Source of the DNA: a virus
Direction: 5' to 3' (one strand)
IMG/VR virus record: IMGVR_UViG_3300014949_000001
DNA length: 43,035 bases
Below the pieces are notes generated by a model. That model did no database searches. It was not told where the DNA came from and was given only the letters and a program-made list of their open reading frames with translations. This document shows positions 10,901 to 39,871 of this stretch, one piece after another. Position 1 is the stretch's first letter. Every line of letters starts with the position of its first letter. The position numbers and the translations under genes are program-made.

Positions 10901-13900
10901 TGCGCAGTCTCGCCTCGTCCGCGTGCATCTCGTCCACGTTCCGATATTCCCGCGTGGCCGTTGCCGCCAGTGTCTCCGGTGTCACGCCGTACATGTTCGC
11001 GCCCTTGGCTGCCGCCATGTTCATGGCCTTCACGATGTTCTCCGCCGTGTAGTCCCAGTGTGTCTGTGCAAAGCTGCGTCTGCCGCTGTCGGTCACTGCA
11101 TCCTCGCCGTTGTAGATGCCCCGCTCGCCCAGCAGCCCCTCCAGCTGTGGCTGCACCCAGTCTTTCACCGTCCGCAGCGCATCATTCCAGCTTCCGCCCG
11201 GTGCGATCATCTCCATCATCTTGGCCGCCGTGGCTTCCTTGTCGATCTCGCCCGCGCTTCCGCCGCTCTCATAGAACTCCTGCGTGCTCCGGATGAAGTC
11301 CTCCACCCGGTTAGGGAACACATTGTTCTTCATGTAGTAGTCGATGCGCTTCTCCTTGGATTCCGGTCTGCGGTTCAGGAAGTTGGCGTGTTCCTCTGCA
11401 TAGACCTCCCGAATGGCCTGTTCCGCCGGTTTCATCTCTTCCGCCGTCAGGCGCTCGCCGGTCATCAGCTTCACCGCCAGCCGCGCCACTTCCTGTTCGC
11501 CCACCGCGTCGAGGTACCGCTGAATGGTCGCGTTGCTGAAGAAACGGTCGAACTGCTTGTCACGGTACACCGGTTCAAGGCTCTTGCCCTCGCTCTGAAG
11601 GAATGCCGCCTGTACCTCCGGATGGTTCGCCAGCTTGTCGGCGATCTCTTCCGGCTCCCATCTGGTCTCATTCTCCAATCCGATCTTGCCCAGCGTGCCG
11701 CTGCCTTGGAAAACGCCGCCTGCAAACTGGCTGGACAGGTTCTTGATGTTCTCATCGAACGCCCGCCGCGCCTCGTAGTTCACCTCGCGCTCCACCAGCG
11801 CATTGTCCTTTGTCGGTGTCCATGCGTCGCCGCCGTACACCTTGTTACGCGGGTCTGCCTCCGGGTCTATGGTGGCACGTGGGAACACTACGCTGGTATC
11901 TCCGTACTTCGTGTGCCCCTCCGCCGCGTCCACGATGGCCACGGAAGGGGATGGGATGCCGCCCCAGTTCAAGGCCGCGTCACGAATAACAGACCAGTCC
12001 TTGTTGTGTACGGCAATCAGGTCTTTCGTCCGCTCCACCGGCTCGTCGATGGAGAAGCGCTTCTTGACAGGCGGCAGCTTCTCTGCTACACTATCGTCAG
12101 AGACGGATGCAGTGCTTCTGGCAGCTCCCGGTGACGGGTTCGTGCTTATTGCTGCATCCGCCTCTTTTTCTGTAAAAGAGGTCGGCTGCAGGTTTAGCAC
12201 ATCGTACAGTGCCATGCTTCCATTTTTCTTCGTGCCTACCACCACGTCCGCCGTGTAGTCGTTTCCGCCCACTCGCAGCAACACATTACCTCTGGCGAAG
12301 TCCGTGATTCTGTCCTTGCGCGGATGGTTTAGCCCTTCGTTCACCCAGTCCGTCGTTGCGCGCAGAATTTCGTCGGCATTGTCCGTGGCGCTTAGCTTGT
12401 CCGCGTGCAGCTGCGGGTCGTTGTTATAGAGCCACTGCATGTACCGGGAGAAAGTCATCTCCTGTCTGCTTCTGCCGTCAATCTGAATTTCGTTGTTCCC
12501 CACGGTGATGCCGTTGGGGAACTTTTTCTTCAGATTCTCCTTGACGGTCTTCACCCAGTCTGCCTCCGGCACGCCCGCAAGGATGTCCTGTTCCACCTCC
12601 ACGAACGGCTTGTTGTCCGTGGTCTTTCCGATGGCGTAGCCATCCCCACTGTCAGCAAACACCGTGTCCTCGCTGCCATAGTCAGGCGATGTCTCCCGGC
12701 GCTCCTGCGCCGTCAGCTCCCGTCGCTTCGCAGTGTCCCGCGCCTCGATCTCTCCCGCCGTGTCGCGGTACAGGTCGGTCGGCATCCGGCCTCCGTTCCT
12801 CGCGTTGCGGTCGATGCTGTCCCGCAGGCTGTACCAGTCCCACACGCGGTCGCCGTACTGTTCCTCCAGCTGGTCTCTGCGCTCGTCGTATCGCACCCAC
12901 TCCGGCGGGTCTGGCTCGATCTGCTCCCATGTGTTCAGGTCAACCTTCCCGCGCGGCACCTTCGGTGCCATGGCATCCAGCTCTTCCATAGCCGCAACGA
13001 ACTGCGGGTCGCTCTCCCGTATCTGCTCATACTGTTCCTGCAGTCGTGCGCCCTCGCGCCGTTCCTCCGCCGTCCTGCTGTCAAATCCGTTTTCCATTCT
13101 CCGGTTCCAGTAGGCGGGGTTTGCCCCGCTGGCAAATCCTTCCCGGCTCTGGATGGCGTGCTGCACCTCATGGATGAGGGAGTTCAGCAGCGCCTCCGGC
13201 CTGTTCTTCAGGTCGCGGCTCAGCTCGATGCTGTCAAACTTCCGGCTGTATCCGCCGTTCTGTCCGTCCTCCAGCGTGTGGAATGTCACGCTCAAATCTG
13301 CCATATCCGGATAGGCTTCAAACAGCTCCGGCGCAGACACCAGCTCTCCCAGCGTGGTGTAGTTGGGAATATCCGCCGCGTCGGTGCGCAGCTGCATCCT
13401 GCTGTCGTTGATCTCGAAGCGCCACTTGCCGTCCATGCCTTCGTGCCAGCCCGTCGCCTTGCGGATGCTCTCCATGTCGGCTCCGGCCTGCTGCATCTCC
13501 TGCGCTTCCCGCAGGCTTTCAAGGTTCGCGCCGTTGGCGTTCGCCCCGGCATAGCTGTGCTGCAATCTGCCCAGCCCCTGCTGCATGTCGATCTCCGGGT
13601 CATACATGTCGTTGAACGCCGCTTCTGCATCCTCTTCAGAGATTTCCCCGTTTGCCATCTGCTGCTGCAGCGTGTCCATATTCTGCGCCTGCGCAGCGGC
13701 TCGCTGCTGCATGTCTGCGGTGAAGCTGCTCTGTGTCTCCTGCAGGGCGCTCTGGTAATAATTCTTCGCCTTCGTCAGGAACGCCCGCTCCTGCGCGTCG
13801 CTGTTGCCCAGCTTTGCCAGCAGCTCGTTGATAAACTGCAGGATGCGCCGTCCCAGCGTCCGGTTCTGCTGCACCATGGCGCGGATGCTTTGCTCGTCGG

Positions 13901-16900
13901 TCAGCAGATACTTTTCCACATACTCCGCCACGATCTCCGAATCAATGGCCGCGTTGTCCGTCAGGTTCTCGCCGTGCCGCGCATACAGTTCCGCCTTCTG
14001 CTGCCGCATGGCCTGCAGGTCTCCGCCGGTCTGCCGGATGCGGTTCAATACCAGCTTCTGCAAATCGCTGTAGCTTCCGCTTGCCTCGATGCTGTGCGTC
14101 AGTTCGTGGCTGATGATCTGCGCCACCGGGTTCTGGCTGCGTGCGTTGACATAGATTTTTCCGTCTGCCGGGTTGTAGTAGCCGTTGTGCATTCCTCCGG
14201 TGCTATCCGCGCCTTCGTCGAAGAACACCACCTCGCGCCCCACGATGTTGGCGATGCGCTGTACATTGGCGATGGTGTCCTCGTCCACGCCCGCAAGAAT
14301 GCCCGTGCGTTCCGTTTCCGTCTCGGCTCTCGCAGCCCTCTGCCGCGTTTCCGCCTGTTCCGCCGTCGGCAAAACGCCCAGCCGATCAGCCTCCATGGTC
14401 TCTCTCAGCGGCGCAGGTTGGCGTTCCTGCTCCGTTGTGCGCTGCTGCGTCTGCGTTTCTGCCTGCTCAGCTGTCGGCAGTTCCGTTCCGCCGGTCTCTT
14501 CCGCCGTCGGCAGCACCACGCCTTTCGTCTGTTCCTGAGCGGTTCCGGTTTGTCCTGCAGTTGGTTCCGTCCCTTCCAGCATTCTGGTGGTCTCCGCAAA
14601 CAGTCTGCCGATCTCCGTATCCGTCAGCTTCTTGCCCTTGTTCAACTTGTTCTTCAGCTCTTGTCCCAGCTTGTATGCCTCGCTGTTTTCATCAAGGGTC
14701 TCCGCCGTCTCGATGATGCTGTTCACCATCTCGTCGCCCATCTTGCGCAGCGTGCTGCCGGTCTGCTGGTATCCGGCGTTTCGCTGCACCGTTCCGATGC
14801 CCACACCCGCCGTGGCCATGGTGCCGCCGGATAGTGCGCCGCCGAGGAAGTCCAGCCCCATCTCCGCCGCCTGCTGCGCCACTGCAAGGCCGAAGGCTTC
14901 GCCCTCCGTCTTGCCCTCCGCCATATATGCGTCGATGGTCTGCTGCCACTCGCTCTTGTCCTTGGCGATGAGGATGTCGGCAAACAGGTTGATGAAGTCG
15001 CTGCCCACTTCCTCCGCGCCTTCCGTGAGCGCATTCTTCAGGATATATTTGATGGCTCCGTCTTCCCACTTGCTTTTCAGCAGCGCCTCGATGCTGAACT
15101 TCTCTGTAAACACTTCCGCCGCACCCGCGATGGTTCCCAGTGTGAACGCCTGCGTGTCTGTCAGTCCTCTATCCTTCGCTGCAATGGTGGCATCCGCCGC
15201 CGCACCGGTGCCCATAACGGCAAGAGACATTCCCTCGCTCAGTGCGCCGCCTCCGCCGAATCCGCCCGTGATCGCAGTATTCAGCAGGAAGTCGCCCATA
15301 CTCATGCCGGTCTGGTACAGGAAGCTGCCCGCCTGCCCCCAGTTCCCGCTCTGTTCAATGGTCTCCGCCACCTGATTGCGAATGGCGTTGTTGGCGTAGG
15401 AAAAGCGGTTGTACGCCGCATTCTGGTCAATGGTTCCGGTGCCGAGATAGTCCGCCGCTTGTCCGAGATAGCTCAGTCCCTTCATCGGGGAAGTCAGCAC
15501 GCTGAACACACTGCTGCCCACCGGAGATTCCTTTGCATAGTCTCTCCAGTACGCCTCTTCTTCCTGCCGCTGGCGATAGTTCAGATCGCCCGTCAGGTAG
15601 TCATAGTAGGCATGTGCCGCGTCCTTGCCCTGCGAGGCGTACAGATAGTTGAAGATGGCCACTTCTTCGTCGGTCATCTGCTGCGATTCCGATCTGTTTT
15701 CCGTCGCCATGCCGAACAGAGCGCCCAGCGGGTTGCTGTCCCCGCCATAGTTCGCCCCGGCTTGATTTGTGATGTACGCGCCCGCCTCGCTGTTGCCGTT
15801 GATGTACTCATACAGCGGGTCATCCCAGCCGCTGGCATCGTCACTGTAGTTATCAAACAGAACGTCGATGTTGGAGCGCTTCTTTCCGTTTGCCGTGCTC
15901 TTGTATTGGCTCTTTTCGCCAAAGTCTTCCGCGCTGGTCAGGTCGGCATACTGGTAATATTTCTTCCAGTCCAGCTCCTCCTGCAGCAAATCCGCCGCGC
16001 CCTGTGCCTCCGCGATCTTGCCGTCCATGGCCTTGGCCTGCGCCTGCAGCGCCTGTGCCTGCTGGCTCCATTGCATCAGCTCATTCGTCCCGCCGCGCCG
16101 GGAAGATACCTTGTTCATCAGCTGCTGTGCCTGCTTCTGCAGCGCCTTTTGCTGCTCTTGCAGCCGCTTCACATTGCTCTGCGCCGCCGTCAGGTCGGCG
16201 TTTATGGCGTTCTCGTCCGTTCGGATGGTCTTCTTCCAGTTGTCGAACAGGTTCTGCTGCTCTGTGCGGTAGGCTTCATAGTCCTCCGCCGCCTGCTTGT
16301 ACTGGTTCCACGCAGGCTCATAGGCGGCATAAGCGGCATCCACCGCTTTCGTCGCGTCTTCATACTGTTTCAGCGTGCTGGCATATTCCTGCTGCATCTG
16401 CTGCACAATCCCGGACGCAATAGCGCTGCTGCCCGCGTACTGCTGCAACTCCGGCAGCTTCCCACTCAGCTCGTTCAGCTTCGTATAGAGATTGCCCGCC
16501 GTCTCATTGGCGTTCTGCAGCTCCTCCGCCTTCTTTTTGGCGTTCGCCTCATAGGTGGTCACGGTGTTGTATTTCCGCTCCATATCCATGCCCAGCTTCG
16601 GCTGCGAATAGTATTTCCCATCCGCCGTCGCGCCCACGAGGTAGTTCTGATAGCTGCCGTACTTCTGCTGCATGGCAGTGGAGCGGTTGTACTCGCTCTC
16701 CGTTAGCTTATCAGATGCAGCTGCGCGTGCGGCATAGTTCTGCCGCACGCTGCTGTCATACTCGTCTCTGGTTTTCCCGCTCCGCTCGAAGGCTGTGTTG
16801 CCGCTGGCAGGGTTCTTCTGCGTGTCTGCCTTGCCCAGCTTCTGATTGCTCCACGTGGAAAAGGTCTGCGCCTTTTGCAGCGTGCCGGTCGTCTGTCTCA

Positions 16901-16934
16901 TTTTGTTGTTGCTCCACTCAGAAAAGGATGCCAT
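4905..16934 (-). CDS. Giant 4009-aa polyvalent virion/ejection protein (coiled-coil and Gly-rich hydrophobic N-region, two HExxH domains, ART-like, ParB-like, long C-terminal structural region)
   Basis: Uninterrupted 12,030-nt ORF with RBS TAAGGAGG. It is the last gene of the structural operon and ends at a strong terminator. Motifs are listed in the sub-features below. Confidence 0.9.
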   Translation of the reverse strand: MASFSEWSNNKMRQTTGTLQKAQTFSTWSNQKLGKADTQKNPASGNTAFERSGKTRDEYDSSVRQNYAARAAASDKLTESEYNRSTAMQQKYGSYQNYLVGATADGKYYSQPKLGMDMERKYNTVTTYEANAKKKAEELQNANETAGNLYTKLNELSGKLPELQQYAGSSAIASGIVQQMQQEYASTLKQYEDATKAVDAAYAAYEPAWNQYKQAAEDYEAYRTEQQNLFDNWKKTIRTDENAINADLTAAQSNVKRLQEQQKALQKQAQQLMNKVSSRRGGTNELMQWSQQAQALQAQAKAMDGKIAEAQGAADLLQEELDWKKYYQYADLTSAEDFGEKSQYKSTANGKKRSNIDVLFDNYSDDASGWDDPLYEYINGNSEAGAYITNQAGANYGGDSNPLGALFGMATENRSESQQMTDEEVAIFNYLYASQGKDAAHAYYDYLTGDLNYRQRQEEEAYWRDYAKESPVGSSVFSVLTSPMKGLSYLGQAADYLGTGTIDQNAAYNRFSYANNAIRNQVAETIEQSGNWGQAGSFLYQTGMSMGDFLLNTAITGGFGGGGALSEGMSLAVMGTGAAADATIAAKDRGLTDTQAFTLGTIAGAAEVFTEKFSIEALLKSKWEDGAIKYILKNALTEGAEEVGSDFINLFADILIAKDKSEWQQTIDAYMAEGKTEGEAFGLAVAQQAAEMGLDFLGGALSGGTMATAGVGIGTVQRNAGYQQTGSTLRKMGDEMVNSIIETAETLDENSEAYKLGQELKNKLNKGKKLTDTEIGRLFAETTRMLEGTEPTAGQTGTAQEQTKGVVLPTAEETGGTELPTAEQAETQTQQRTTEQERQPAPLRETMEADRLGVLPTAEQAETRQRAARAETETERTGILAGVDEDTIANVQRIANIVGREVVFFDEGADSTGGMHNGYYNPADGKIYVNARSQNPVAQIISHELTHSIEASGSYSDLQKLVLNRIRQTGGDLQAMRQQKAELYARHGENLTDNAAIDSEIVAEYVEKYLLTDEQSIRAMVQQNRTLGRRILQFINELLAKLGNSDAQERAFLTKAKNYYQSALQETQSSFTADMQQRAAAQAQNMDTLQQQMANGEISEEDAEAAFNDMYDPEIDMQQGLGRLQHSYAGANANGANLESLREAQEMQQAGADMESIRKATGWHEGMDGKWRFEINDSRMQLRTDAADIPNYTTLGELVSAPELFEAYPDMADLSVTFHTLEDGQNGGYSRKFDSIELSRDLKNRPEALLNSLIHEVQHAIQSREGFASGANPAYWNRRMENGFDSRTAEERREGARLQEQYEQIRESDPQFVAAMEELDAMAPKVPRGKVDLNTWEQIEPDPPEWVRYDERRDQLEEQYGDRVWDWYSLRDSIDRNARNGGRMPTDLYRDTAGEIEARDTAKRRELTAQERRETSPDYGSEDTVFADSGDGYAIGKTTDNKPFVEVEQDILAGVPEADWVKTVKENLKKKFPNGITVGNNEIQIDGRSRQEMTFSRYMQWLYNNDPQLHADKLSATDNADEILRATTDWVNEGLNHPRKDRITDFARGNVLLRVGGNDYTADVVVGTKKNGSMALYDVLNLQPTSFTEKEADAAISTNPSPGAARSTASVSDDSVAEKLPPVKKRFSIDEPVERTKDLIAVHNKDWSVIRDAALNWGGIPSPSVAIVDAAEGHTKYGDTSVVFPRATIDPEADPRNKVYGGDAWTPTKDNALVEREVNYEARRAFDENIKNLSSQFAGGVFQGSGTLGKIGLENETRWEPEEIADKLANHPEVQAAFLQSEGKSLEPVYRDKQFDRFFSNATIQRYLDAVGEQEVARLAVKLMTGERLTAEEMKPAEQAIREVYAEEHANFLNRRPESKEKRIDYYMKNNVFPNRVEDFIRSTQEFYESGGSAGEIDKEATAAKMMEMIAPGGSWNDALRTVKDWVQPQLEGLLGERGIYNGEDAVTDSGRRSFAQTHWDYTAENIVKAMNMAAAKGANMYGVTPETLAATATREYRNVDEMHADEARLRTVSEEEHEKALRDLGIYLDRVTDDLLRTTKHRFNNTFEEEQNLSRIIAEAAKGKKTVAAVKAAFRKEGYAISDGHAKSILALIDRAANIPTGYYEAKAQRVVPFSEAAAIIAPTSAPAEEIAAVKAATGVNIIQYETGNDEQRKALVNGLEGVKFSISEDSNGRQLTEAQQEFFKDSKAVDGEGRLLTLYHGTGTKFTVFDKAHIGENFADRGSDLGFYFSPYIEDATGYAREATGYKGKGEIMQVYLNLKNPLVIEDEGWGSAIGQADIRHGDLKRWAQEGGHDGIIVKSTDIEMDDNGTPDAVYIAFSPEQIKSVTNENPTDNPDIRFSISEGGEYDGAVKLKESTIDTYLRDYAAKSSPKYAKAYIAYMTPDDFLNLTTSEGGRQIVEQHSKELDAEKLGEATRWQPIQLNIDHETGEVQGHEGRHRAVAMRNAGVEQIPVLLFDSSNKYSKSEIGELTLTGQDFGGTWSDAEVRVHNLLPLSYENRDAVVERFTMPTDERTLQYSVTEEETAEATLPTAEDEEKKNSIRTSLPKKAQDYLKRAENALVGRVSRALSVPRFAQREYLQKIVQQISEEYLTTGRVSEETAAELFEQAYSEGIVVDEEFYQQYKDIKDHLRTQAVTISEEDKHDIADFNDFRKSAFGRLRIVNEGGLPVDVAYQELQDMAPELFPDDLTHPADQLVRMFEVAQSIEKTEKSLSEYYGRDAEEFKRWAKNDFDAAIGDTIGDLRTVKRYADERAAKANAAAETPMTTEQVTEAYKQLKKARWESEKAKAKNLLTDHDNVQLGRLLKGEIELEHLDPKTDNVKGITAVYEATTEYERLVKLLTEYKQSQRAKLREEADKFLKTANDWKDKKAGILYSRETMERNILDIVKDKKLAQEIIAEYFTPVHEAQAKSTRLKNKMRERVQELNLSTKETKAMQKVGKISEAHAVQLLGEAMDNIRMLENSRGRMAERDGKTLSDWRGIVQEMWKQNPQLDKAKIEHAVEEFRSIYNELFQQMNEARVRNGYEPVNYRSGYFPHFQPGDGDGIMGLFGRALGIDTQVTALPTTINGLTHTFRPGIQWFGNAQQRLGFDTAYDAVEGFDRYIEGVADVIYQTDNIQKLRTLATQARYRTGDEGIRKQVDTVYADTRLTEEEKRSKIDSIYEDGRFALSNFVVELEEYTNLLANKKSRADRNMEQALGRNMYNLVKGLESRVAANMVAINPASWLTNFIPLTQGGAMLDRGELLRGMWQTLQSFKENDGIVDASAFLTNRKGSDPLVRTWAQKASATMSSPMEYIDQFTAGSLVRARYNQNLKRGMSETAAMTEADNWTAGVMADRSKGSTPTLFNRSNPMTKVFTQFQLEVNNQLSYLFKDMPRAYKEKGLAALAMALFKFFLGAWLYDEVYEYFIGRRPALDPLGILNDTVGDITGYELPNLVELGVGAVTGDMPSFETEKKNAYDTVTETLGDVAEELPFIGGVLGGGRVPISSALPDWDNLLKTVTSDTWSTKKKLATAGKELMNPLTYLALPFGGGQLKKIYQGLSATIKGGSYSVDAEGNDLLQYPVYNDDPWQAALNAGQAMLFGKTSLKTGRDWVESGFKSFGAKETAAYQGMTEAGVPEEDAYNLLKELRGTKKTETESKAEAERRVLQAADISGDGKSVVYYGLMATDKERELMDALADSDADMGAVTQVLLDVKNAGSLKGAEASNAKRTALAESPLTDDEKREMYRCLFGEKQEDGSYTTSRDDDIMAFEQAGLDFDTFLKVQNEYTTVNEKYSGASEKAVEFSHWVNSQNLTAEQAETVRDCFKYYSQIPAEAARYDSFVSAGLSDDAAYELANSLNALEPEDGKDSVSDLQLYRAVVDAGLSTEEQMNVLGEMMQESEYSKLQTGYSYGVTPEAYVAFRELLPKFDFDGNGTFKQEEVEAAIDSMGGGGNGIVLPGAGGGQSLTVTQQAALWQLANKSWKPAKNPYSTSVGQKVYDALNAETESGIVLPDGTSYTGGLVLPKG
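9435..9827 (-). other. Domain in giant ORF: ParB/sulfiredoxin-like
   Basis: IDHETGEVQGHEGRHRAVAMRNAGVEQIPVLLFD. GHEGRHR is encoded at about 9612-9632 (aa ~2435). Confidence 0.45.
9930..10367 (-). other. Domain in giant ORF: ADP-ribosyltransferase-like (ART-PolyVal-like)
   Basis: RLLTLYHGTGTKFTVFDKAHIG...GSDLGFYFSPYIEDATGYA...VYLNLKNPL. LYHGT starts at about 10337 (aa ~2200). Confidence 0.5.
13035..13547 (-). other. Domain in giant ORF: second HExxH domain
   Basis: TGWHEGMDGKWRFEINDS...LLNSLIHEVQHAIQSREGF. HEVQH is encoded at about 13158-13172 (aa ~1255). Confidence 0.45.
13935..14297 (-). other. Domain in giant ORF: zincin-like metallopeptidase (HExxH no. 1)
   Basis: VVFFDEG...HNGYYNPADGKIYVNARSQNPVAQIISHELTHSIE. 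HELTH is encoded at about 14094-14108 (aa ~943). It resembles the metallopeptidase module of phage and conjugative-element polyvalent proteins. Confidence 0.55.
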
Positions 16935-22952: not shown

Positions 22953-23188
22953 GCCCCTCTCTCCAGATCGTCGATGCGGTGGTTTGCCACCTTCAGCTTT
23001 TCCTCGAAGACCGCCGCCGCCTCTTCCAGATGGTAGGTGCGCTCCACCAAACCGTTGTGCTTCGCTACTTTCTGCTCCAGCTCCTCCAGCCGGTAGGCGA
23101 TGAGCGCCGCGCTTTTCTTGTTTGCGAAGTACGCCCCCGCCATGGTGCCGATCAGGCTCAGCACAGCCACAATGACCGTCTCCGTCAT
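22949..23188 (-). CDS. Small N-terminal-TM plus coiled-coil protein (BhlA/UviB holin-like)
   Basis: 79 aa from the ATG at 23188 (MTETVIVAVLSLIGTMAGAYFANKK... coiled coil). ATGA overlap. Confidence 0.4.
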   Translation of the reverse strand: MTETVIVAVLSLIGTMAGAYFANKKSAALIAYRLEELEQKVAKHNGLVERTYHLEEAAAVFEEKLKVANHRIDDLERGA

Positions 23189-23796
23189 GCCGTCGCCTCC
23201 GTCCATCCATACGCACCCGGCTCCCACACGTTCGCGTCCATATCGCTCGTCCAGTGTTTGCCGTTGTGGCTCACCTTTGCGCCCTTGGCGTAGGCATCTG
23301 TGCTGCCCACCGGCTGGCTCCACTCCGGCCATTCCTCCGCCGGGTCGGAGATGCCCACCCACAGCGACGGGCTGTCCTCCGGTTTCCAGTCCGCCTGCGA
23401 GGTGTGCGCCTGCAGGCATTTGTAGAGCTTTCCGCTGCGTTCCCTGATCTGTCCTGCGGTGTAGGCCACCGGGTACGTCCACGGGCTGAACAGCTCCGCG
23501 TGCTCTCCCGCCGTCACGCCGTCGATGTCTCCTCTCTCTGTCATGGTGACAAAGGCGATGCCCGCCGCCTCACTGCTGCTCTGCAAAACCGCGCCGGTGT
23601 CCTTCTCAATGAGCTGCACTTCCTCCAGTTCATCAAGCCCCGTGTGCCCCATCAGACGGTATACCGTGCCGTCCACGGCCACGCCCTGTGCGTCCTCCTC
23701 TTCGCAGAGGATGTAGAAGCCGTCCGCGTGCCTGCGGATGTAGTTCGGCTTCTCTGTCAGCGCGATCACGCCGCCGTCCTTTCTGATCTCGTACAT
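23185..23796 (-). CDS. Protein with two CBM5/12-like carbohydrate-binding repeats
   Basis: 203 aa. YKCLQAHTSQADWKPEDSPSLW and VSHNGKHWTSDMDANVWEPG..W resemble chitin/carbohydrate-binding CBM5/12 repeats. Confidence 0.5.
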   Translation of the reverse strand: MYEIRKDGGVIALTEKPNYIRRHADGFYILCEEEDAQGVAVDGTVYRLMGHTGLDELEEVQLIEKDTGAVLQSSSEAAGIAFVTMTERGDIDGVTAGEHAELFSPWTYPVAYTAGQIRERSGKLYKCLQAHTSQADWKPEDSPSLWVGISDPAEEWPEWSQPVGSTDAYAKGAKVSHNGKHWTSDMDANVWEPGAYGWTEATA

Positions 23797-23800
23797 GCTT

Positions 23801-24919
23801 TCACGCTCCTTTTTCCATCAGTCGTTTGTAGAACCTGTCCATCCGCCGCAGCACCCGGTAGCTGTTGCCCCGCCGCATGTGGCCGCGCCAGCTCTCGTAT
23901 GCCGTGCGGATGTCTTCCTCTGTCATTCTGCCTTCCGCCATCCATCGCCGGAAGGTCTTCAGCTTCCGCCGCATCCGCCTTGCGCTTTTGCGGCACATCT
24001 TCCGCCGCACCTTCCCCGTCTCCGTCAGATAGAATCGCGTCTTCAGGAAGTGCAGCTCCTGCAGCTTTACAATGCGCGTCTTCTTCTCGTTCATCCGGAT
24101 GCCGAGGTCTGCGCATACCGCCCGGATTTGCTTCAGGCATTCCTGCAGGTAGTCCCGGCTCTCGTGGATGAGATAGCCGTCGTCCATATATCTGCCGTAG
24201 CCCTCGATGTGCAGTTGCTCCTTGATGAAGTGGTCAAGCCGGTTTGGCAGCATCAGCGCGTCGATCTGGCTCACCTGACTGCCGAGGCCGAAGCCCCGCT
24301 CGCCAAAGTCCTCCATCAGACCGCACGCCAGCTTTCGCACCCGCTCGTCCCGGATGCGCCGCTCGCTCTCTGCGTAGATCGGCGCGTGCGGCGCGGAGTT
24401 GAAGTAGTCCGAAAAGTCGAATACCAGCGCCCAGCCGTCCGTCCCGTGCTTTCGGTAGTACCGCTGCAGGTGGCAGGTCAGCCTATCCATGGCAAAGTCG
24501 ATGCCCTTGCCCTTCAGGCTCGCCGCGTTGTCGTACACGAACGCCGCCGAGAACAGCGGCACCAGCGCGTTGTCGCACAGGCAGCGCTGCACCACCCGCT
24601 CCGCAATGTGCACGCTGCGGATGTGCCGCAGCTTTCCCCGTTCCATCAGGTCGAAGGCGAAAAAGCCCTTGGTCTTCCATGTGCCGTCCATCAGCTCCCG
24701 GTGCGTCCGGGCGATGTTGGCGGTAAAGTTTCCGAGATACCGCTGCGTGGAGCATTTCCATCCCACGCCCTTGCAGCATTCCCGTCCCGCCCGGTACAGG
24801 TGCTCGTAGCTGAATACCTGTTCAAAGCTCCCGCACGCCTCGCTGCGTGCATCTCTTCGCCGCTGGCGTTCCGCTTTTCTTCTCCTGTACCGTGCCTCGT
24901 GTCTCTCTTCGCTCGTCAT
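23801..24919 (-). CDS. DGR-type reverse transcriptase
   Basis: 372 aa. YMDD catalytic motif (GRYMDDGY) and the DGR-typical GLGSQVSQ motif. It lies 228 nt downstream of the TR. Confidence 0.92.
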   Translation of the reverse strand: MTSEERHEARYRRRKAERQRRRDARSEACGSFEQVFSYEHLYRAGRECCKGVGWKCSTQRYLGNFTANIARTHRELMDGTWKTKGFFAFDLMERGKLRHIRSVHIAERVVQRCLCDNALVPLFSAAFVYDNAASLKGKGIDFAMDRLTCHLQRYYRKHGTDGWALVFDFSDYFNSAPHAPIYAESERRIRDERVRKLACGLMEDFGERGFGLGSQVSQIDALMLPNRLDHFIKEQLHIEGYGRYMDDGYLIHESRDYLQECLKQIRAVCADLGIRMNEKKTRIVKLQELHFLKTRFYLTETGKVRRKMCRKSARRMRRKLKTFRRWMAEGRMTEEDIRTAYESWRGHMRRGNSYRVLRRMDRFYKRLMEKGA

Positions 24920-25147
24920 AATTCTCCTCGCCCGTTAGGGCATCCCCTGTACGGAATTATTCTTGGGTGCGTGTTCTATCCGCGTGGCAGTACCAGCCAT
25001 GGAACGGGCTGTCCGCACATTCGCCCGCCATGCAAGCAGCGTCCGGCTGACTGCATCAGAGGATTGTTTTGGCTGTGCCGGGAACAAGCTCTCCTTCTGC
25101 AAGGGTGCTGCTTCGCCGCTGCCGGTTACTGTCCTGACCCATCTCTT

Positions 25148-25280
25148 GCAGAATCCGAAGGCCACGCCATTCGCATTGCTCGCGTTGTTGTAGTTGGCGT
25201 TGCCGTTGCTGTTGACATTGCAGAAATTCGTGGAGTTGCTGCCATTCGGAGAGCGCTCCCACCAGTTGTTCGCGCTGCCG
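25148..25280 (-). repeat. DGR template repeat (TR)
   Basis: 133 bp aligning gap-free to 25808-25940 and to 39203-~39310. In the VR frame it encodes 14 Asn AAY codons. It lies in an intergenic position between avd and the RT. Confidence 0.93.
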
Positions 25281-25315
25281 CAAGTGCAACAAATACAGAG
25301 CTTGACCCATGTTTT

Positions 25316-25744
25316 TCATTCCGGAAGGTCTTTGTACCGCTGCCGGTCGTTCTTCTTCACCGCCGCAATGAGCTTCGCTTCCTCGCAGATGAGGTCGCCC
25401 CAGCGCTGCATCGCCTTGTGAATCCACCCGTAGCCCTCCGGGTTCTGCAAAATGCTGTCATACAGCAGCTGCAGCTTTGGGCTGAGGTTCTGCAGCGCGT
25501 TATTCGCTCGCATCAGCTCGTCCCTGCGCAGCTGCGCCTCGTGCCGGTTCGTCGGCCAGATGTTGTTTGCCGCCCGTACCCGGTCATGCACCTCGCTGCT
25601 CAGCTCCATGATGCGTCCCGTCAGAAATCGCTCGTACCGCTTCGGTGCCTTCATGCAGCACGCAAAGGTGTGTGCCTCCAGCTGCCTTGCCGTTTCGATG
25701 AACTGCACGCTGCTCTCGCCTCGTTTGGATTTGTAGACCGACAT
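25316..25744 (-). CDS. avd: Accessory variability determinant (Avd, four-helix-bundle protein)
   Basis: 142 aa from the ATG at 25744 (RBS GGAAGGGAG). Basic and helical, with ...KAPKRYERFLTGRI...RVRAANNIWPTNRHEAQLRRDELMRANNAL... It lies between VR1 and the TR. Confidence 0.8.
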   Translation of the reverse strand: MSVYKSKRGESSVQFIETARQLEAHTFACCMKAPKRYERFLTGRIMELSSEVHDRVRAANNIWPTNRHEAQLRRDELMRANNALQNLSPKLQLLYDSILQNPEGYGWIHKAMQRWGDLICEEAKLIAAVKKNDRQRYKDLPE

Positions 25745-25761
25745 GGTTCTCTCCCTTCCAT

Positions 25762-25783
25762 CCCGCAGCACACAGGCTGCGGG
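25762..25783 (-). promoter_or_regulatory. GC hairpin 3' of VR1 (DGR target-recognition hairpin candidate)
   Basis: CCCGCAGC / GCTGCGGG 8-bp stem with a 6-nt loop, 18 nt past the target stop codon. Confidence 0.7.
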
Positions 25784-25801
25784 ATTGCCTCAGATGCTGG
25801 A

Positions 25802-27460
25802 TTAAAAGCAGAAGCCGAAGGCCACGCCATACGCACCGCTCGCGGAGCTGCAGATGGCGCCGCCGTCGCTGTTGACAACGCAGAAAAACGTGGAGTCGCT
25901 GCCATACGGAGAGCGCTCCCACCAGGCGTACGCGCTGCCGTTGAACTTCTTCACCTTGCTGTTGCCCGCCTTGTAGTAGTCATACTGCGTGCCCTCGCCG
26001 CTCTTGGAATAGCTGACGCTGCCGAAAATCTCGATCTCGCTCAGCAGAAACAGCTTGTCCGCCGTGGTGTTGATGGTGGCGCTCTGACTGCCCGCCGAGG
26101 TCAGCTTGTTCACCTCCCGGATGCCGTTCTGTACCTCCGTCGGCATCAGCGCCAGAATGGCAGGCAGGTGTGTGCTTCGCATGGCGCAGCTCGTCCAGCC
26201 GCCGCTGTTGGTGTTGGAGCTGTTCATGTTCTTGGCCTCGCCGTAGCAGTCGTGCAGCTGGAAGGTCAGCGGTGCCTTCCCGCCGGATGCGTATGTGTCG
26301 TGGTTCTTGCCGATGATGTCTACCTGATAGCTCGCGCCATTGATGGTCATCGTCTTGCTGTTGCCCACCACCCATGTGCTCGGCACGCTGCCCGAATGGC
26401 ACGCCGCGATGATGGCAGCCCAGTCGTTGTCCGCGAAGTTGTCCTTCAGGAAGCTCACCGTCACCGCGCAGGTCTTGTTCGCCGGTGCGGTGTAGTTCGT
26501 TCCCGCCGCCACGCTGATGGTGATCGTCGCGCTGCCGTTGGCCTTGCCCGTCACCGTCACCGTGTTGCCCGATACGCTCACCGTTGCCGCCGCTGTGTTG
26601 TTGCTCGTGGCGCTGATCTTGCCGTCACCGCTGCGCGTCACCGTGATGGTCTTGCTCTTCGTCGTGGTGTCCAGCGTCATGCTGGCGGGGGAGATGGAGA
26701 GGCTGCCCGCCGCCTTCCCGATACTCCAGCTCACGCTCTTCGCCGTCGTCGTGCCGTCCGCCCAGCGGTAGTTGCTCTTCGGCGTGAAGGTTGCCGTGTA
26801 GCTTCCCGCGTTCGTGCCCGTGGTCGTGCCGCCGATGGTCAGCTGTGCCGTGTTGTAGTTGTTCCATGTGGGGGACTGGCTGCCGCCGTTGTAGGTCAGG
26901 CTCCCGCTCTGGCTCGGCACCGTGGAGATCGTCTTCCGGTTCACCGTCACGCCGGTGGTGGCCGTCTTGGTCACGTTCCGCTCCGTGTAGCTCACCGTGA
27001 TCGTCTGCGTGCCCACGGTATTAAGCGTCGCGGGGCTGCAGCTGTAGCCCGTCACATTGGCGGTGGCTCCGTCGGAGTAGGTGGCCTTCACCACCATGCC
27101 CGCGCTCTGGAAGCTGTCGCCATACTCATAGACCTTCTTCGTCGGCTGCGCCGTGATCTCGATCTTCGTCAGCCGGTGGATGACCGTGATGGTCTGCTCC
27201 GCCGTCTTCGTCACGCCGCCCTCTGTGTAGCGGATGGTCACCTTCGTTGTGCCGTCCGCCAGCGGTGTATTCGGCTCGTAGCTATAGCCCGTGCATTTCA
27301 GCGTCGCGCCGTTGCTGTAGGTCGCAGTCACCACCATGCCCGCCGGGTCAAAGGTCTCGCCCTGCGTGTAGGTGGTCTTTGTAGGCGGTGTTGTGATGGC
27401 GATTCCGGTCAGCTTGATGCCGCCGCCTCCGCCGCCCACCATGTTGAATACCAAACTCAT
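25802..27460 (-). CDS. DGR target protein 1: tandem Ig-like (Big_3/Big_2-like) stalk plus C-terminal lectin-fold-like variable domain
   Basis: 552 aa. Repeats ...TTPPTKTTYTQGETFDPAGMVVTATYSNG... and a Big_2-like segment. The C-terminus WWERSPYGSDSTFFCVVNSDGGAICSSASGAYGVAFGFCF is VR1. ATGA overlap with the tail-fibre gene. Confidence 0.9.
   Translation of the reverse strand: MSLVFNMVGGGGGGIKLTGIAITTPPTKTTYTQGETFDPAGMVVTATYSNGATLKCTGYSYEPNTPLADGTTKVTIRYTEGGVTKTAEQTITVIHRLTKIEITAQPTKKVYEYGDSFQSAGMVVKATYSDGATANVTGYSCSPATLNTVGTQTITVSYTERNVTKTATTGVTVNRKTISTVPSQSGSLTYNGGSQSPTWNNYNTAQLTIGGTTTGTNAGSYTATFTPKSNYRWADGTTTAKSVSWSIGKAAGSLSISPASMTLDTTTKSKTITVTRSGDGKISATSNNTAAATVSVSGNTVTVTGKANGSATITISVAAGTNYTAPANKTCAVTVSFLKDNFADNDWAAIIAACHSGSVPSTWVVGNSKTMTINGASYQVDIIGKNHDTYASGGKAPLTFQLHDCYGEAKNMNSSNTNSGGWTSCAMRSTHLPAILALMPTEVQNGIREVNKLTSAGSQSATINTTADKLFLLSEIEIFGSVSYSKSGEGTQYDYYKAGNSKVKKFNGSAYAWWERSPYGSDSTFFCVVNSDGGAICSSASGAYGVAFGFCF
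25808..25940 (-). repeat. DGR variable repeat 1 (VR1)
   Basis: 133 bp with 21 hand-counted mismatches to the TR. All are at TR coding-strand adenines. It ends one codon before the stop. Confidence 0.93.
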
Positions 27461-29259
27461 GCCGTTGCCTCCGTTCTCAGAATGTTCACGGTCAGATTGG
27501 CCGTGGGTGCTTCATTGCAGTGGAAGGTCATCTTTCCCGCCGTGGTCACATCGTCGGCGTAGATCACCGCCTCTGCGTAGCCTGCAAAGCTGTCTCCCGC
27601 AGGGCATACCGTGTAGGCGTACCCGCTCGTGACGAACTTGCTGTTGCTCACAGTCTGCGCGTTGCCGCTCCATCCCGCCGCCGTCAGTGTCACCGTGAAG
27701 GAAAGTGCCTTCCCGCTCTTGCCGTTCCAGCCCGTCCGCTCTGCCGCCGTGATGTGCGCGGTGGTGTTGCCCTCGTGATCGTCGAGGTTGCCCTGCACGG
27801 CTGCCGCAGCGCCCGCTGTCTCTTTCCCTGCAAGTGCGGTACGGATGTCGCTGTGCGCCGTACTGGAGCTGTTATGCGCCGATACCGCGCTTGCCGCCGT
27901 CCCCGTCGGGTCTGCGCCCGCCTGTGCCGCCGTCACCCGATGCGGGTTGTCCGTGTTTCCGGTGTGTGCGCCGAGGCTCGTTGCGTTGGCTTTCTTGTCC
28001 AGCTCCGTCTTCACGCCGCCGCTGGTCACGGGGTTCGTGCTGTTCGCCGTCGGGGCTGTGTCGAAGGTCAGCTTGTCCTGCTTGCCGTTCCACTTGGTGC
28101 GCTCCGCCGCTGTGATGTGCGCCGTGGTGTCGCCCTCGTGGCCGTCCAGATTGCTCTGCACCGCCGCCGCAGCGCCGGAGGCATCCGCCCCCACCATCTC
28201 CGCCGTGTAGTCGCCCTTCTGCGGCTTCACGATGCCGCCGCGCCCGTTGAAGCTGGTCACGCCACCGCCCGCAATGGCCTGTGCGCTCTCGCACCAGTAT
28301 TTGGCGTTGTTGCTGTCCTCGCCCTCGCGGGTGCCGGTGCCGCCCACCGCCCAGCTTTCGGCGGTCTTGCTGGTGGCTGCCACCTGTGTGGCGTTCTGCG
28401 CCGCCGCTGCGGCGCTTTCCTCCGCGTCTGCGGCAGCGCCCTCCGCCTTCACTTGTGCGCTCTGTGCCTTGCTCTGTGCGCTCACCGCGCCCGTCTTGGC
28501 GGTTTCCGCTGCGGTCTTGGCGCTCGTCGCCGTGCTTGCTGCCGTCTCCGCCGCCGTCTGTGCATCCTCTGCCGCGCTCTGCGCGTTTTCCGCCTTGCTG
28601 GCAGAGGTTGCCGCCGCCGTCTTGCTGCTCGCCGCTGCAGTCTCGCTGGCCTTGGCGTTCGTCTCAGCAGTCTGTGCTGCGGTCTTGGCGCTCGTTGCCG
28701 TGCTGGCCGCTGTCTCTGCCGCCGCCTTGGCGCTTCGCGCGTCTGTCGCGCTCTGTGCTGCCGCTGTGGCGTTGGTGCCGCTGGTGGAGGCGTAGCCCTT
28801 GGCGCTGCTCTCCGCCGTCTGTGCTTCTCCCGCCGCGTCCGTGGCTGTCTTGGCGCTTGCTGCCGCCGCTGCGGCTTTCTCCGTTGCGGTGTCTGCGCCG
28901 CTCTTGGCTGCGGCTGCGTCTGCGCCGGTGGTCTGTGCTGCGGTCTCCGCCGCACTCTGCGCCGCCTCCGCCGCCGTCTTGGCGTTCTGTGCCGCCGCCA
29001 GCGTCTGGCTCACCACATCGCCCTGCAGCTCGCTCAGGCTCAGCAGCTCCTGCCACTGTGTGTCGCTTTCGTACTTCCACTGCAGCTGCTGCGCGGTTTC
29101 GTCATAGCGGATGACGATAGGCTCGCCGCCGTCACCCTTCAGGCTCTTCAGCCATTCCTCCTCCGTCCCCTGAAAGCCGTGCTTCACGGCGATGCCGTAG
29201 GCGGTGATGTAATACCCGCGCCACTCGGTTCCGATCTTCGTGTTTCCGTACCCGCTCAT
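27457..29259 (-). CDS. Tail fibre protein (Ala-rich coiled-coil shaft, duplicated HEGxTTAHITAAERTxWNGK motif)
   Basis: 600 aa from the ATG at 29259 (ATGA overlap, RBS GAGGAGG). The shaft is a long A/T/S/Q/E-rich repeat region. Confidence 0.75.
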   Translation of the reverse strand: MSGYGNTKIGTEWRGYYITAYGIAVKHGFQGTEEEWLKSLKGDGGEPIVIRYDETAQQLQWKYESDTQWQELLSLSELQGDVVSQTLAAAQNAKTAAEAAQSAAETAAQTTGADAAAAKSGADTATEKAAAAAASAKTATDAAGEAQTAESSAKGYASTSGTNATAAAQSATDARSAKAAAETAASTATSAKTAAQTAETNAKASETAAASSKTAAATSASKAENAQSAAEDAQTAAETAASTATSAKTAAETAKTGAVSAQSKAQSAQVKAEGAAADAEESAAAAAQNATQVAATSKTAESWAVGGTGTREGEDSNNAKYWCESAQAIAGGGVTSFNGRGGIVKPQKGDYTAEMVGADASGAAAAVQSNLDGHEGDTTAHITAAERTKWNGKQDKLTFDTAPTANSTNPVTSGGVKTELDKKANATSLGAHTGNTDNPHRVTAAQAGADPTGTAASAVSAHNSSSTAHSDIRTALAGKETAGAAAAVQGNLDDHEGNTTAHITAAERTGWNGKSGKALSFTVTLTAAGWSGNAQTVSNSKFVTSGYAYTVCPAGDSFAGYAEAVIYADDVTTAGKMTFHCNEAPTANLTVNILRTEATA

Positions 29260-29621
29260 ACATATACCTCCTCGTGGGTATCTGCCGGACGGTAGTTGAG
29301 GGCAAACCAGCGCATGAACTCGCCGAAGAAGCTGTTGAACATCTGCATCGTGTTCTGGTATTTGTTGTACTCGCCGTTGGCGAAGTCGATCATGGCCGTC
29401 AGGTATGCCCAGTAGATTTTGTCGTGCGGCGGCTGCGCCAGCAGTTCCTTGTCCTTGTCCGCGTCGTACTGGTAGGTGATGATCTCCTCGCTCGCCCACA
29501 GTAAGACCTCGGTCTGCACCAGCCCTTCACACTCGTTCAGCCACTTTGTCTTCGCCTCGTTTGAGAAGGCGTTAGGCTTGATCTCATCTACATAGTCGAT
29601 GACGCTCTTCAGTGTCGCCAT
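29256..29621 (-). CDS. Hypothetical head-tail connector/adaptor-position protein
   Basis: 121 aa, first gene after the capsid-gene terminator, RBS GGAAAGGGGG. The call is based on position only. Confidence 0.4.
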   Translation of the reverse strand: MATLKSVIDYVDEIKPNAFSNEAKTKWLNECEGLVQTEVLLWASEEIITYQYDADKDKELLAQPPHDKIYWAYLTAMIDFANGEYNKYQNTMQMFNSFFGEFMRWFALNYRPADTHEEVYV

Positions 29622-29644
29622 TATCCGTCCCCCTTTCCTCGAAA

Positions 29645-29679
29645 TGAAAAGCGGGGCAGCGGCCTGCGCCGCCGCCCCG
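29645..29679 (-). terminator. Rho-independent terminator/attenuator after the major capsid gene
   Basis: 12-bp stem (1 mismatch) CGGGGCAGCGGC / GCCGCCGCCCCG at 29652-29679 with a 4-nt loop. On the minus strand it is followed by CTTTTCATTTC. Confidence 0.75.
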
Positions 29680-29696
29680 TCCGGTCTGTGTTCTGA

Positions 29697-30716
29697 TTAG
29701 CCGCCAGTCGATGTGGCAATGAGCTGCGTGCCGCCGGTCACGCCGCCCACGGCATAGCCGCGCCAGTCGTTGAAACCGGCGATGAAGCGGGCGTAGCCCT
29801 TCCACACGTTGGCATCGTTGCCCGCCAGCTCGCTTCTGACCTCCAGCTGCACGCGGTCAAGCCACATGGCGCTGCCGTACTCGTCGTTGTACTTCTTGTC
29901 CAGCAGAATCCACGGGGAAGTGCCGGACGCGATGAACTGGTTCAGGTACGGCCACACCACCACGTTCCAGCGGCCAAAGTTGTAGTTGAAGCCGTTGTTG
30001 GCAGTGGCAGGGTCTTTGTCCGCGCCGATGGCTGCGAACACGTCGCGCTTGAGCTTGTAGTCGTTGGGGATGAGGATGGTGGTGGGAGCCACATCCAGTA
30101 CCTCGTCGTTGTCGCCACGGAAGTCCTGCATCTTCGCCTCCATCGCCATCAGCGCGTCGTTGCTGAAGGCATCAGAGAACTGGTTGGACTGGTTGGACTT
30201 GCCCAGCTTGCTGGGGTGGTTGGTGGCGAACAGGCACTTGCCATCGGCGGTCTTCGCGTCAAAGGTCTTGCCGGAGAAGGTGGTCTCCGTCTTCTTCTGG
30301 ATAGCCGCGCCGATGAGGGCAGCGCCGAACTTCTCGCGGGTGCGGTAGTAGCTGGTGATGAAGCCAGCGGGCTGCTTCTTCAAATCCATCAGCTTTGCAT
30401 CCTCCACGATCTCGCGGGACAGGGAGAAGCTGTTCTTCCACGTCATGTGTTCGAGGAACTTTGCGAAGCCCTCCTGCATACCGTCCACGGGGTAGTCGCC
30501 GTTCTCGCCCACCGGCTGGAAGCCGTCCATGGCCGTCATGGTGGAGAACTTTTCGCCCCAGTGGTTGCTGCTGCCCATATTGAACAGCTCCGGCAACATA
30601 CTGGTCTGTTCAAATGCCTCGCCCCTCTTTTCGAGGAACATCTTGATCGGCTCCTGAGACTTGCCGAAAATGCTGTCCTGAAGGCCGGAGCCTTCGGTAA
30701 AGGTGATATTAGCCAT
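29697..30716 (-). CDS. Major capsid protein (HK97-fold type by position and size)
   Basis: 339 aa. It follows the scaffold and decoration-like genes and is followed by a strong terminator. Confidence 0.8.
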   Translation of the reverse strand: MANITFTEGSGLQDSIFGKSQEPIKMFLEKRGEAFEQTSMLPELFNMGSSNHWGEKFSTMTAMDGFQPVGENGDYPVDGMQEGFAKFLEHMTWKNSFSLSREIVEDAKLMDLKKQPAGFITSYYRTREKFGAALIGAAIQKKTETTFSGKTFDAKTADGKCLFATNHPSKLGKSNQSNQFSDAFSNDALMAMEAKMQDFRGDNDEVLDVAPTTILIPNDYKLKRDVFAAIGADKDPATANNGFNYNFGRWNVVVWPYLNQFIASGTSPWILLDKKYNDEYGSAMWLDRVQLEVRSELAGNDANVWKGYARFIAGFNDWRGYAVGGVTGGTQLIATSTGG

Positions 30717-39152: not shown

Positions 39153-39180
39153 GATCTGCACGCGCACAGGCGTGCAGATC
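39153..39180 (-). promoter_or_regulatory. GC hairpin 3' of VR2 (second DGR target-recognition hairpin candidate)
   Basis: Perfect 11-bp stem GATCTGCACGC / GCGTGCAGATC with a 6-nt loop, 16 nt past the stop codon. Same geometry and near-identical loop as the VR1 hairpin. Confidence 0.7.
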
Positions 39181-39196: not shown

Positions 39197-39871
39197 TTAA
39201 AGGCAGAAGCCGAAGGCCACGCCAAACGCATAGCTCGCGTAGGTGTAGCCGGCGGAGCCGTTGCTGTAGACACCGCAGAAACGCGTGGAGTCGCTGGCAT
39301 ACGGCGAGCGGAGCCAGTACCACCATGTTCCTCTTCCCGGAACTTCCTTCACGCGGCTGCGTTCCGAGTCAAACAGTTCAAACTGTTCGTCTCCCAGATC
39401 GCCGGGCGCCCACTCAGCCGCCGCCTTTGCGCCGAACATTTCCGTAAACGACGGCAGCCACAGCTTGTCCTGCGTCTGCACTTCTTCGCCGTTGATCTTC
39501 TGCCGGATGGTGCGCGGCACGATCATCGCCTGCAGCTCTTTCGGCAGTCGAGGCAATACATCTTCGTTCAGCCACTTGCGCATCGCGCTGTCCTTCCAGC
39601 CGCCTTTGTTCGTCGCGTGGTCGTTCATTGCGCGCATCTTCTCCATGCAGTCCTTCAGTACAACCATCACGCGGCCTTCCTTCGTGACGTGCACCACCTG
39701 CGCCGTCAGCTGCTCAAACACATCATTCTCATTGTCTGCGTCCGCCTCAAGGCAGATCGGGAACTCGCTGCCGACCTCCAGCATGATTTCCGCCAGGTTC
39801 ATCTGCTCCTGCACGGTCTTCAGCTGCGCCCAGTCCGTCGTGATCGTCGTTCTTTTTGTGATGTCAAACAT
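39197..39871 (-). CDS. DGR target protein 2: standalone lectin-fold-like variable-domain protein (paralogue of the C-terminal domain of target 1)
   Basis: 224 aa with no Ig stalk, signal peptide or TM. ...GGWKDSAMRKWLNEDVLPRLPKEL...KLWLPSFTEMFG...WWYWLRSPYASDSTRFCGVYSNGSAGYTYASYAFGVAFGFCL. The C-terminus is VR2. Confidence 0.85.
   Translation of the reverse strand: MFDITKRTTITTDWAQLKTVQEQMNLAEIMLEVGSEFPICLEADADNENDVFEQLTAQVVHVTKEGRVMVVLKDCMEKMRAMNDHATNKGGWKDSAMRKWLNEDVLPRLPKELQAMIVPRTIRQKINGEEVQTQDKLWLPSFTEMFGAKAAAEWAPGDLGDEQFELFDSERSRVKEVPGRGTWWYWLRSPYASDSTRFCGVYSNGSAGYTYASYAFGVAFGFCL
39203..39310 (-). repeat. DGR variable repeat 2 (VR2), remote from the cassette
   Basis: 39203-39296 aligns gap-free to TR 25148-25241 with 16 mismatches, all at TR coding-strand adenines. 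Homology decays at 39297-39310, where there are 3 non-adenine mismatches. Confidence 0.88.

Follow-up and report, generated by a model that had tools for sequence, protein, structure and literature searches.

Record IMGVR_UViG_3300014949_000001 of the IMG/VR virus collection comprises 43,035 bp of DNA, analysed here over its full length (the window), and contains a reverse transcriptase (RT) gene in the vicinity of a 133-bp repeat. The locus thus raises the question of whether it is a diversity-generating retroelement (DGR), which proteins it would diversify and whether it has been at work recently. A first-pass annotation, made from the sequence alone, had proposed a complete DGR with the layout of Bordetella phage BPP-1. 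Every component named there is indeed present, while a second target gene and a structured RNA of the Rfam family RT-2 had been missed. The cassette genes all lie on the minus strand in the order target, avd, template repeat (TR), structured RNA and RT, so that the component order and orientation given by that annotation hold. In light of the evidence presented below we are highly confident that the window carries a complete DGR with two targets, which was recently active within its lineage and which would operate by a BPP-1-like mechanism.

Template and variable repeats

The hallmark of a DGR, differences between TR and variable repeat (VR) that are confined to template adenines, was evaluated by computational alignment of the TR with the first variable repeat, VR1 (Table 1). 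Hereby, the two sequences align over 133 bp without gaps, and their similarity breaks off abruptly at both ends. All of the 21 mismatches (21/21) fall on a plus-strand T of the TR, i.e. an adenine of the coding strand, which is replaced in VR1 by C (10), A (8) or G (3), while non-adenine TR positions show zero mismatches. The chance of finding 21 of 21 mismatches on 36 adenines among 133 sites is P = 3.8e-15 (hypergeometric). The count and the mismatch classes obtained by hand in the first-pass annotation are therefore correct, with the refinement that the 3'-most mismatch represents a fixed difference, which is treated below. The remaining statements of that annotation on the repeats are borne out as well: the approximately 36 TR adenines amount to exactly 36, the 14 AAY codons are found in the translation of the TR in the VR frame (GSANNWWERSPNGSNSTNFCNVNSNGNANYNNASNANGVAFGFC), and VR1 ends one codon before the stop codon of its gene. 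The adenines occupy the first (19), the second (16) and in one case the third codon position. Adenine mutagenesis cannot turn any TR codon into a stop codon, and the TR gives access to about 10^20.7 protein variants.

The repeat is not restricted to the cassette. A generic repeat finder independently recovers the 133-nt family together with a third copy at 39203-39335, whose start lies 13,395 bp from that of VR1, and adenine-masked TR fragments match the same interval on the minus strand, at the 3' end of a gene located about 13.4 kb from the TR (target gene 2). In this second variable repeat, VR2, the 16 mismatches over 94 bp again all coincide with TR adenines (P 6.6e-11). The homology runs on to about 39310 with two non-adenine differences, both corresponding to alleles of a related TR type. 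Hence, VR1 and VR2 alike display adenine-confined differences from the TR. A search for a third VR with adenine-masked 40-mers of the TR gave none.

Reverse transcriptase, accessory protein and spacer RNA

DGR RTs carry the signature [I/V/L]GxxxSQ in place of QGxxxSP (PMC7826257). The 372-aa RT of the window possesses both the YMDD box and the DGR-type motif that had been noted at first reading, the latter in the context GFGLGSQVSQ. The protein matches Pfam RVT_1 and PHROG 1423 (E 1e-80), and among PDB entries it best matches, over the full length, chain 8ub7_A (E 2.7e-19), the RT of 328 aa in the DGR ribonucleoprotein of Bordetella phage; a group II maturase follows at E 9e-4. In a BLASTP alignment with the BPP-1 reverse transcriptase Brt (26% identity over 339 aa, E 3e-23), R74 of Brt is paired with an Arg and IGSLTSQ with LGSQVSQ. 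Both R74 and the signature-motif positions take part in adenine mutagenesis (PMC7826257). Motif, YxDD box and closest similarity to Brt jointly identify the protein as a DGR-type RT; judged by sequence similarity it is to Brt, and not to group II or retron RTs, that it stands closest, in line with the DGR assignment of the first-pass annotation. Among annotated phage records the nearest RT is that of a human-faecal 'Bacteriophage sp.' entry (53%), and the second nearest that of Roseburia phage Shimadzu (49.7%).

For the 142-aa open reading frame (ORF) between VR1 and the TR, which had been described as a basic, Avd-like four-helix bundle, we calculated a pI of 9.4 and obtained an AlphaFold2 (AF2) model from 34 homologues in which four helices are predicted (predicted local distance difference test score, pLDDT, 87.7; predicted template-modelling score, pTM, 0.82). 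Comparison of this model with the PDB by Foldseek places members of the Avd / S23-intervening-sequence family (2gsc, 2rld, 8ube_D, 8ub7_E) at nine of the ten best positions, with bAvd (4dwl_B) at rank 25 of the listing. The Avd-family matches mostly have target-normalised TM-scores (TMt) of 0.70-0.77 and probabilities of 0.95-1.0. At the level of sequence, the ORF shows a weak similarity to phrog_3206 ('Avd protein of DGR', E 1.4e-3) and resembles the annotated Avd of phage Shimadzu over the N-terminal 77 aa only (25% identity, E 1e-5); searches of the PDB with the sequence and with its profile returned nothing. The predicted structure thus points to an Avd accessory protein, at the level of the fold only.

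The spacer between TR and RT is filled by an RNA of the Rfam family RT-2. The covariance match spans model positions 1-222 of 222 with zero non-canonical pairs flagged, begins 4 nt past the TR and stops 2 nt before the ATG of the RT gene, so that score, full-length coverage and the adjoining RT gene concur in assigning it to this family. RT-2 is likewise found in the TR-RT spacer of Roseburia phage Shimadzu and directly upstream of the RT gene in nine related loci, whose RT identity ranges from 74% down to 47%. In the paper defining the motifs RT-1 to RT-19, RT-10 is the spacer of BPP-1, and a link to DGRs was speculated for other RT motifs (PMC5737381). It is hence a well-supported conclusion that the orphan motif RT-2 is the spacer RNA of a large DGR clade of gut Clostridia; by analogy with BPP-1 it is presumed to act as RNA scaffold and priming element. 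An RNA duplex search of the sequence upstream of the TR against the spacer, aimed at a BPP-1-like cPRT-stop pairing, yielded an uninterpretable long duplex.

Table 1. Position and properties of the DGR components and of the adjoining fibre gene in the window.
Feature	Position	Strand	Properties
DGR reverse transcriptase	23801..24919	-	372 aa; YMDD, LGSQVSQ, Arg equivalent to Brt R74
RT-2 RNA (Rfam RF03077)	24922..25143	-	fills TR-RT spacer; 142.2 bits vs gathering score 40
TR	25148..25280	-	133 bp, 36 adenines, 14 AAY codons
avd-like gene	25316..25744	-	142 aa, pI 9.4, predicted four-helix bundle
GC-rich hairpin 1	25760..25785	-	22 nt downstream of VR1; 10-bp stem, 6-nt loop CTGTGT
IMH-like 3' end of VR1	25808..25828	-	GGCGTGGCCTTCGGCTTCTGC; 14-nt A-free GC-rich block
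VR1	25808..25940	-	133 bp; ends one codon before stop of target gene 1
Target gene 1	25802..27460	-	552 aa: short N-terminus, Big_3 x2, Big_2, C-terminal DUF6273 (aa 408-546) with VR1
Upstream tail-fibre-like gene (context, outside the DGR)	27457..29259	-	PHROG tail families
GC-rich hairpin 2	39153..39180	-	22 nt downstream of VR2; 11-bp stem, loop CTGTGC
Target gene 2	39197..39871	-	224 aa, single DUF6273 domain
VR2	39203..39296	-	94 bp, 16 mismatches, 16/16 at TR adenines

Target-recognition elements

In BPP-1, a target is recognised by the initiation of mutagenic homing (IMH) element together with a GC-rich hairpin, of which the stem structure matters and the stem sequence does not (PMC3240598). 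In the window, VR1 and VR2 end with an identical 21-mer, GGCGTGGCCTTCGGCTTCTGC, the TR counterpart of which is GGCGTGGCCTTCGGATTCTGC. Here the 3'-most mismatch is located, GGATTC in the TR versus GGCTTC in the VRs. A C occupies this site in 15/15 VR1 and 15/15 VR2 sequences tabulated, and an A is found in every related TR examined. Since the A/C difference is constant across the tabulated VRs and TRs, it represents a fixed marker distinguishing IMH from its TR-borne counterpart IMH* and not a mutagenesis event. The flanks of VR1 and VR2 remain alike past the TR homology (TTTAATCC.G.ATCT), and the TR flank lacks this sequence.

Each VR is followed by a GC-rich hairpin at the same distance (Table 1). 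The two stems, ATCCCGCAGC and ATCTGCACGC, differ in sequence, and every change is compensated. Both hairpins are devoid of a T-run, and the ribosome-binding site of the next gene comes after each of them. Without a T-run the VR1 hairpin is not a terminator; by analogy with BPP-1 (PMC3240598) it is a putative target-recognition hairpin or cruciform. Thus, the arrangement expected of DGR targets, IMH as opposed to IMH* and then a GC-rich hairpin, is present with a deviating loop length.

Target proteins

The Ig-like repeats attributed to target 1 at first reading correspond to two Big_3 domains and one Big_2 domain of Pfam, and the protein also matches PHROG 37900. Its gene starts within an ATGA overlap on the stop codon of the upstream fibre gene, again in agreement with the first reading. 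The mechanically called ORF of this fibre gene begins with GTG at 29499; the ATG at 29259, which has GAGGAGG ahead of it, is the likelier start and results in a protein of about 600 aa. Long Ala-rich tandem repeats are a further feature of the fibre gene.

Both targets contain the domain DUF6273 (PF19789), with 57.4 bits for target 1 and 89.2 bits for target 2 at a cut-off of 23.5, and in the literature DUF6273 has been assigned a C-lec-like fold (PMC10743442). Target 2 aligns with aa 402-552 of target 1 (38% identity over 156 aa, E 5e-28) and is, by this sequence comparison, a paralogue of the target 1 C-terminus. Foldseek searches with an AF2 model of target 2, which was built from a 32-sequence alignment and is poor (pLDDT below 50 over most of the VR-encoded residues 186-217), gave meaningless PDB matches and, in BFVD, only other DUF6273 models. 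A sequence search of the PDB with the target profile gave nothing, and alignment of the DUF6273 profile with BPP-1 Mtd by hhalign (probability 0.07%) did not place the domain in the Mtd family.

Target 1 is translationally coupled to the tail-fibre gene, which directly precedes its own, and is probably virion-borne. A role as a receptor-binding tip, which the first-pass annotation had favoured, we infer from gene order only, and a role as adhesin or decoration protein is just as conceivable. On the latter view target 1 would not be a receptor-binding tail tip but an adhesin or decoration protein with Ig repeats, of the Hoc-like or tentaclin-like sort, which binds mucus, glycans or other environmental ligands, so that the same DGR would serve another purpose. 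We consider this possible, if on balance rather unlikely. The combination of Big_3 and Big_2 repeats with a terminal DUF6273 domain would suit such a protein, the DUF6273 region of target 1 matches PHROG 10993 ('Hoc-like head decoration'), and the literature leaves the role of large/small DUF6273 target pairs open (PMC11792537, PMC10743442). However, the PHROG 10993 match spans the variable domain only and includes no capsid-binding part, and the ATGA overlap on a fibre-like gene suggests co-expression and co-assembly.

Target 2 sits outside the structural module. Its upstream neighbour is a gene of the N4-gp49/Sf6-gp66 family (40236-40940), and downstream follow a 57-aa ORF, a hammerhead ribozyme and a Rep (ORF2/G2P) gene. 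Target 2 could conceivably be something other than a virion receptor-binding protein, namely a non-structural binder of, for example, a variable intracellular or defence component of the host, whose hypervariation would not serve adsorption; we regard this as an improbable reading. If it were true, one TR would diversify two functionally unrelated interfaces. As separate observations on this region, a target 2 homologue (P0060) is annotated with both DUF6273 and Phage_gp49_66, which may reflect either a functional link or a gene-calling artefact, and the ribozyme is a type II hammerhead (RF02276) at 38636-38706 on the minus strand (46.7 bits vs gathering 37, E 1.3e-6), which follows target gene 2 at a distance of about 490 nt and immediately precedes the Rep ORF2/G2P gene.

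Variation among relatives and activity

Of the 250 RT relatives present in IMG/VR, about 18 have an RT identity of at least 96%. VR1 was compared among 15 genomes in which it is recognisable, and the cassette was aligned between the window and 13 close relatives. Hereby, VR1 is distinct in 15/15 genomes, with variation at 34 of the 36 adenine sites and at 5 of the 97 non-adenine sites. In the 13 close relatives the TR differs from that of the window at 0-1 positions in 133 bp and VR1 at 14-22 (12-17%), while the differences in avd and in the spacer amount to 0-4%. No two of the 14 relatives with target 2 share a VR2 sequence. The population pattern of a DGR, with VRs hypervariable at adenine sites and a conserved TR, is therefore found among related contigs, and the concentration of variation at adenine sites that the first-pass annotation had anticipated is evident. 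This comparison of sequences indicates that the DGR has been active in the recent history of the lineage.

Some contigs carry a divergent DGR, with an RT of 71% identity and a TR that differs at several non-adenine sites. In three contigs with such a TR, VR2 equals the contig's own TR at every non-adenine site. VR2 of the window follows the window TR at all diagnostic sites except the two nearest its 5' edge, which carry the alleles of the other TR type. Such edge alleles are what one would expect if the resident TR had converted VR2 only in part, the position of the 5' crossover being variable. Two relatives show peculiarities of their own. In L003 (IMGVR_UViG_3300045988_001299, 4980-5112) VR1 is 12 nt (4 codons) shorter than the TR through an in-frame deletion, with adenine-site substitutions still present, and in L014 (about 4937-5640) a 175-bp insertion separates the VR1 hairpin from avd, the post-hairpin sequence being unlike that of all others.

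Several observations weigh against a complete and recently active DGR of the BPP-1 type. The hairpin loop in the window has 6 nt (CTGTGY) and is not the 4-nt GRNA loop that is canonical and critical in BPP-1, where the addition of 2 nt to the loop abolishes homing (PMC3240598); more distant members of the RT clade have GAAA or GTAA hairpin loops. A C-type-lectin fold of the VR domain is not confirmed by the AF2 model of target 2 (pLDDT 62), and the domain shows no similarity to Mtd. As to the Avd-like protein, the Foldseek E-values are weak (0.09-1.3), its profile gives no sequence-level signal against bAvd in hhalign (probability 0.16%), and the ORF has no Pfam or NCBIfam match. The evidence for activity comes from the comparison of contigs and concerns the history of the lineage only. 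Finally, in one relative (L004/L082, IMGVR_UViG_3300045988_005966) VR2 mismatches its TR at six non-adenine sites. The TR of this relative is identical to that of the window and all six VR2 differences are alleles of the related TR type, so that either VR2 was left unconverted after recombination or the assembly is chimeric. VR2 is thus not always kept converted.

This unconverted VR2, along with published cases of gut-phage DGRs for which reads from cultures revealed no variation (PMC11792537), would be in keeping with a fossil DGR, whose repeats and genes persist as relics and have ceased to diversify anything in this genome. We nevertheless judge a fossil to be quite improbable, as RT, avd, RT-2 RNA, IMH and hairpins are all intact, as 15/15 VR1 sequences differ among contigs that are mostly near-identical while the TR shows 0-1 differences in the 13 close relatives, and as VR2 of the window has been converted to the resident TR type. 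That the RT derives from a group II intron, a retron or a defence RT system, the repeat being an unrelated duplication or gene-conversion tract, is hardly conceivable: although the best NCBIfam match of the RT is group_II_RT_mat (TIGR04416) and weak matches to defence RT (DRT) and retron models exist, their scores stay far below the cut-offs (TIGR04416 70.5 bits vs 300, retron_St85 22 vs 235, Drt models far below), PADLOC reports generic RT-domain matches of 70 bits or less only, a scan of the window with Rfam at gathering thresholds reveals neither group II intron RNA nor retron RNA, Brt is by far the best solved-structure match, and the adenine-only mismatch pattern has P = 3.8e-15. Readings as group II intron, retron or DRT were therefore discarded, given the sub-cut-off family scores and the absence of the respective RNAs.

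Proposed mechanism and comparison with known elements

The steps of diversification can be proposed for the DGR of the window after the model of Bordetella phage BPP-1. The avd-TR-spacer transcript would fold around a complex of RT and Avd, and the spacer RNA would prime cDNA synthesis on the TR, during which the RT would misincorporate opposite template adenines only. Directed by the IMH and by the hairpin that follows it, the mutagenised cDNA would then take the place of VR1 and, independently of this, of VR2, with a variable 5' crossover. The outcome would be hypervariable C-terminal ligand-binding surfaces on two proteins.

With BPP-1 (mtd-avd-TR-brt) the element shares gene order and orientation, the adenine-only TR-to-VR differences, an IMH that is rich in GC and differs from the IMH* of the TR, a GC hairpin after the VR, a structured RNA between TR and RT, and the RT signature motif. 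In contrast to BPP-1 it has two targets, one of which is separated from the TR by about 13.4 kb; its target domain, DUF6273, does not resemble Mtd in sequence; Avd is similar at the fold level only; the spacer RNA is RT-2 and not RT-10 (PMC5737381); and the hairpin loop is a 6-nt CTGTGY instead of GRNA.

Similar in layout is also Roseburia phage Shimadzu (LR596903), where tail fibre, Avd, TR and RT follow one another and RT-2 occupies the spacer. Its DGR reportedly diversifies a tail protein together with a second protein, for which no function is known (PMC11792537). Shimadzu is, however, a myovirus with sheath, tube and tape-measure genes, whereas the phage of the window has a P22-like portal and no tube or sheath genes. 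Two-target DGRs with DUF6273 domains also occur in the Faecalibacterium prophages Lelie and CP11 and in the gut phages nd4 and nd12, the RTs of which are only 34-39% identical to that of the window; in the tentaclins of nd4 and nd12 the variable domain is N-terminal, here it is C-terminal.

Layout, target domain and two-target arrangement are thus already described for known DGRs, and the known picture of these elements is unchanged by our results. The new points are modest, i.e. the assignment of RT-2, the non-canonical hairpin loop, the IMH* marker that is never converted and the partial-conversion footprint in VR2. What the window adds is a clean and complete two-target DGR on a closed genome bounded by direct repeats, from a common human-gut phage lineage with hundreds of relatives in IMG/VR. 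It thereby provides natural evidence on points known mainly from BPP-1, namely a marker between IMH and IMH* that stays unconverted, the conservation of hairpin structure but not of hairpin sequence at two independent targets, and what appears to be incomplete conversion on the 5' side of a VR once the TR had been exchanged. Moreover, it connects RT-2, an orphan family of Rfam, with the spacer between TR and RT in DGRs.

Genomic setting

The window is a complete assembly with a GC content of 59.7%. Bases 1-99 are identical to 42937-43035, from which it follows that the genome is circularly closed or terminally redundant, with a length of about 42,936 bp. The gene content includes a P22-like portal, a Terminase_3 large terminase, a capsid gene and an amidase, and tail tube or sheath genes are absent among the annotated genes of the window. 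The DGR belongs to a podovirus-like phage of gut Clostridia, roughly 43 kb in length. Contigs with a near-identical RT were binned into metagenome-assembled genomes of Butyricicoccaceae and Oscillospiraceae, and a 202-kb Dysosmobacter contig carries an RT of 60% identity. A megablast search of 23000-30000 against the INPHARED phages gave no nucleotide match. The same interval contained no sigma-70 promoter in a promoter scan, and no intrinsic terminator was found inside the fibre-target-avd-TR-RT block.

More than a quarter of the genome is taken up by an ORF of 4009 aa (4905-16934, minus strand) with the polyvalent-protein domains PBECR5 nuclease, LPD23, ART-PolyVal ADP-ribosyltransferase and LPD3. 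Two further minus-strand genes are of note. A 350-aa ORF at 2652-3704, which combines HTH_38 with an integrase core (rve), looks like an IS30-type transposase or integrase, and directly after the RT gene, before the holin and amidase genes, a 203-aa protein with two CBM_5_12 modules is encoded at 23185-23796.

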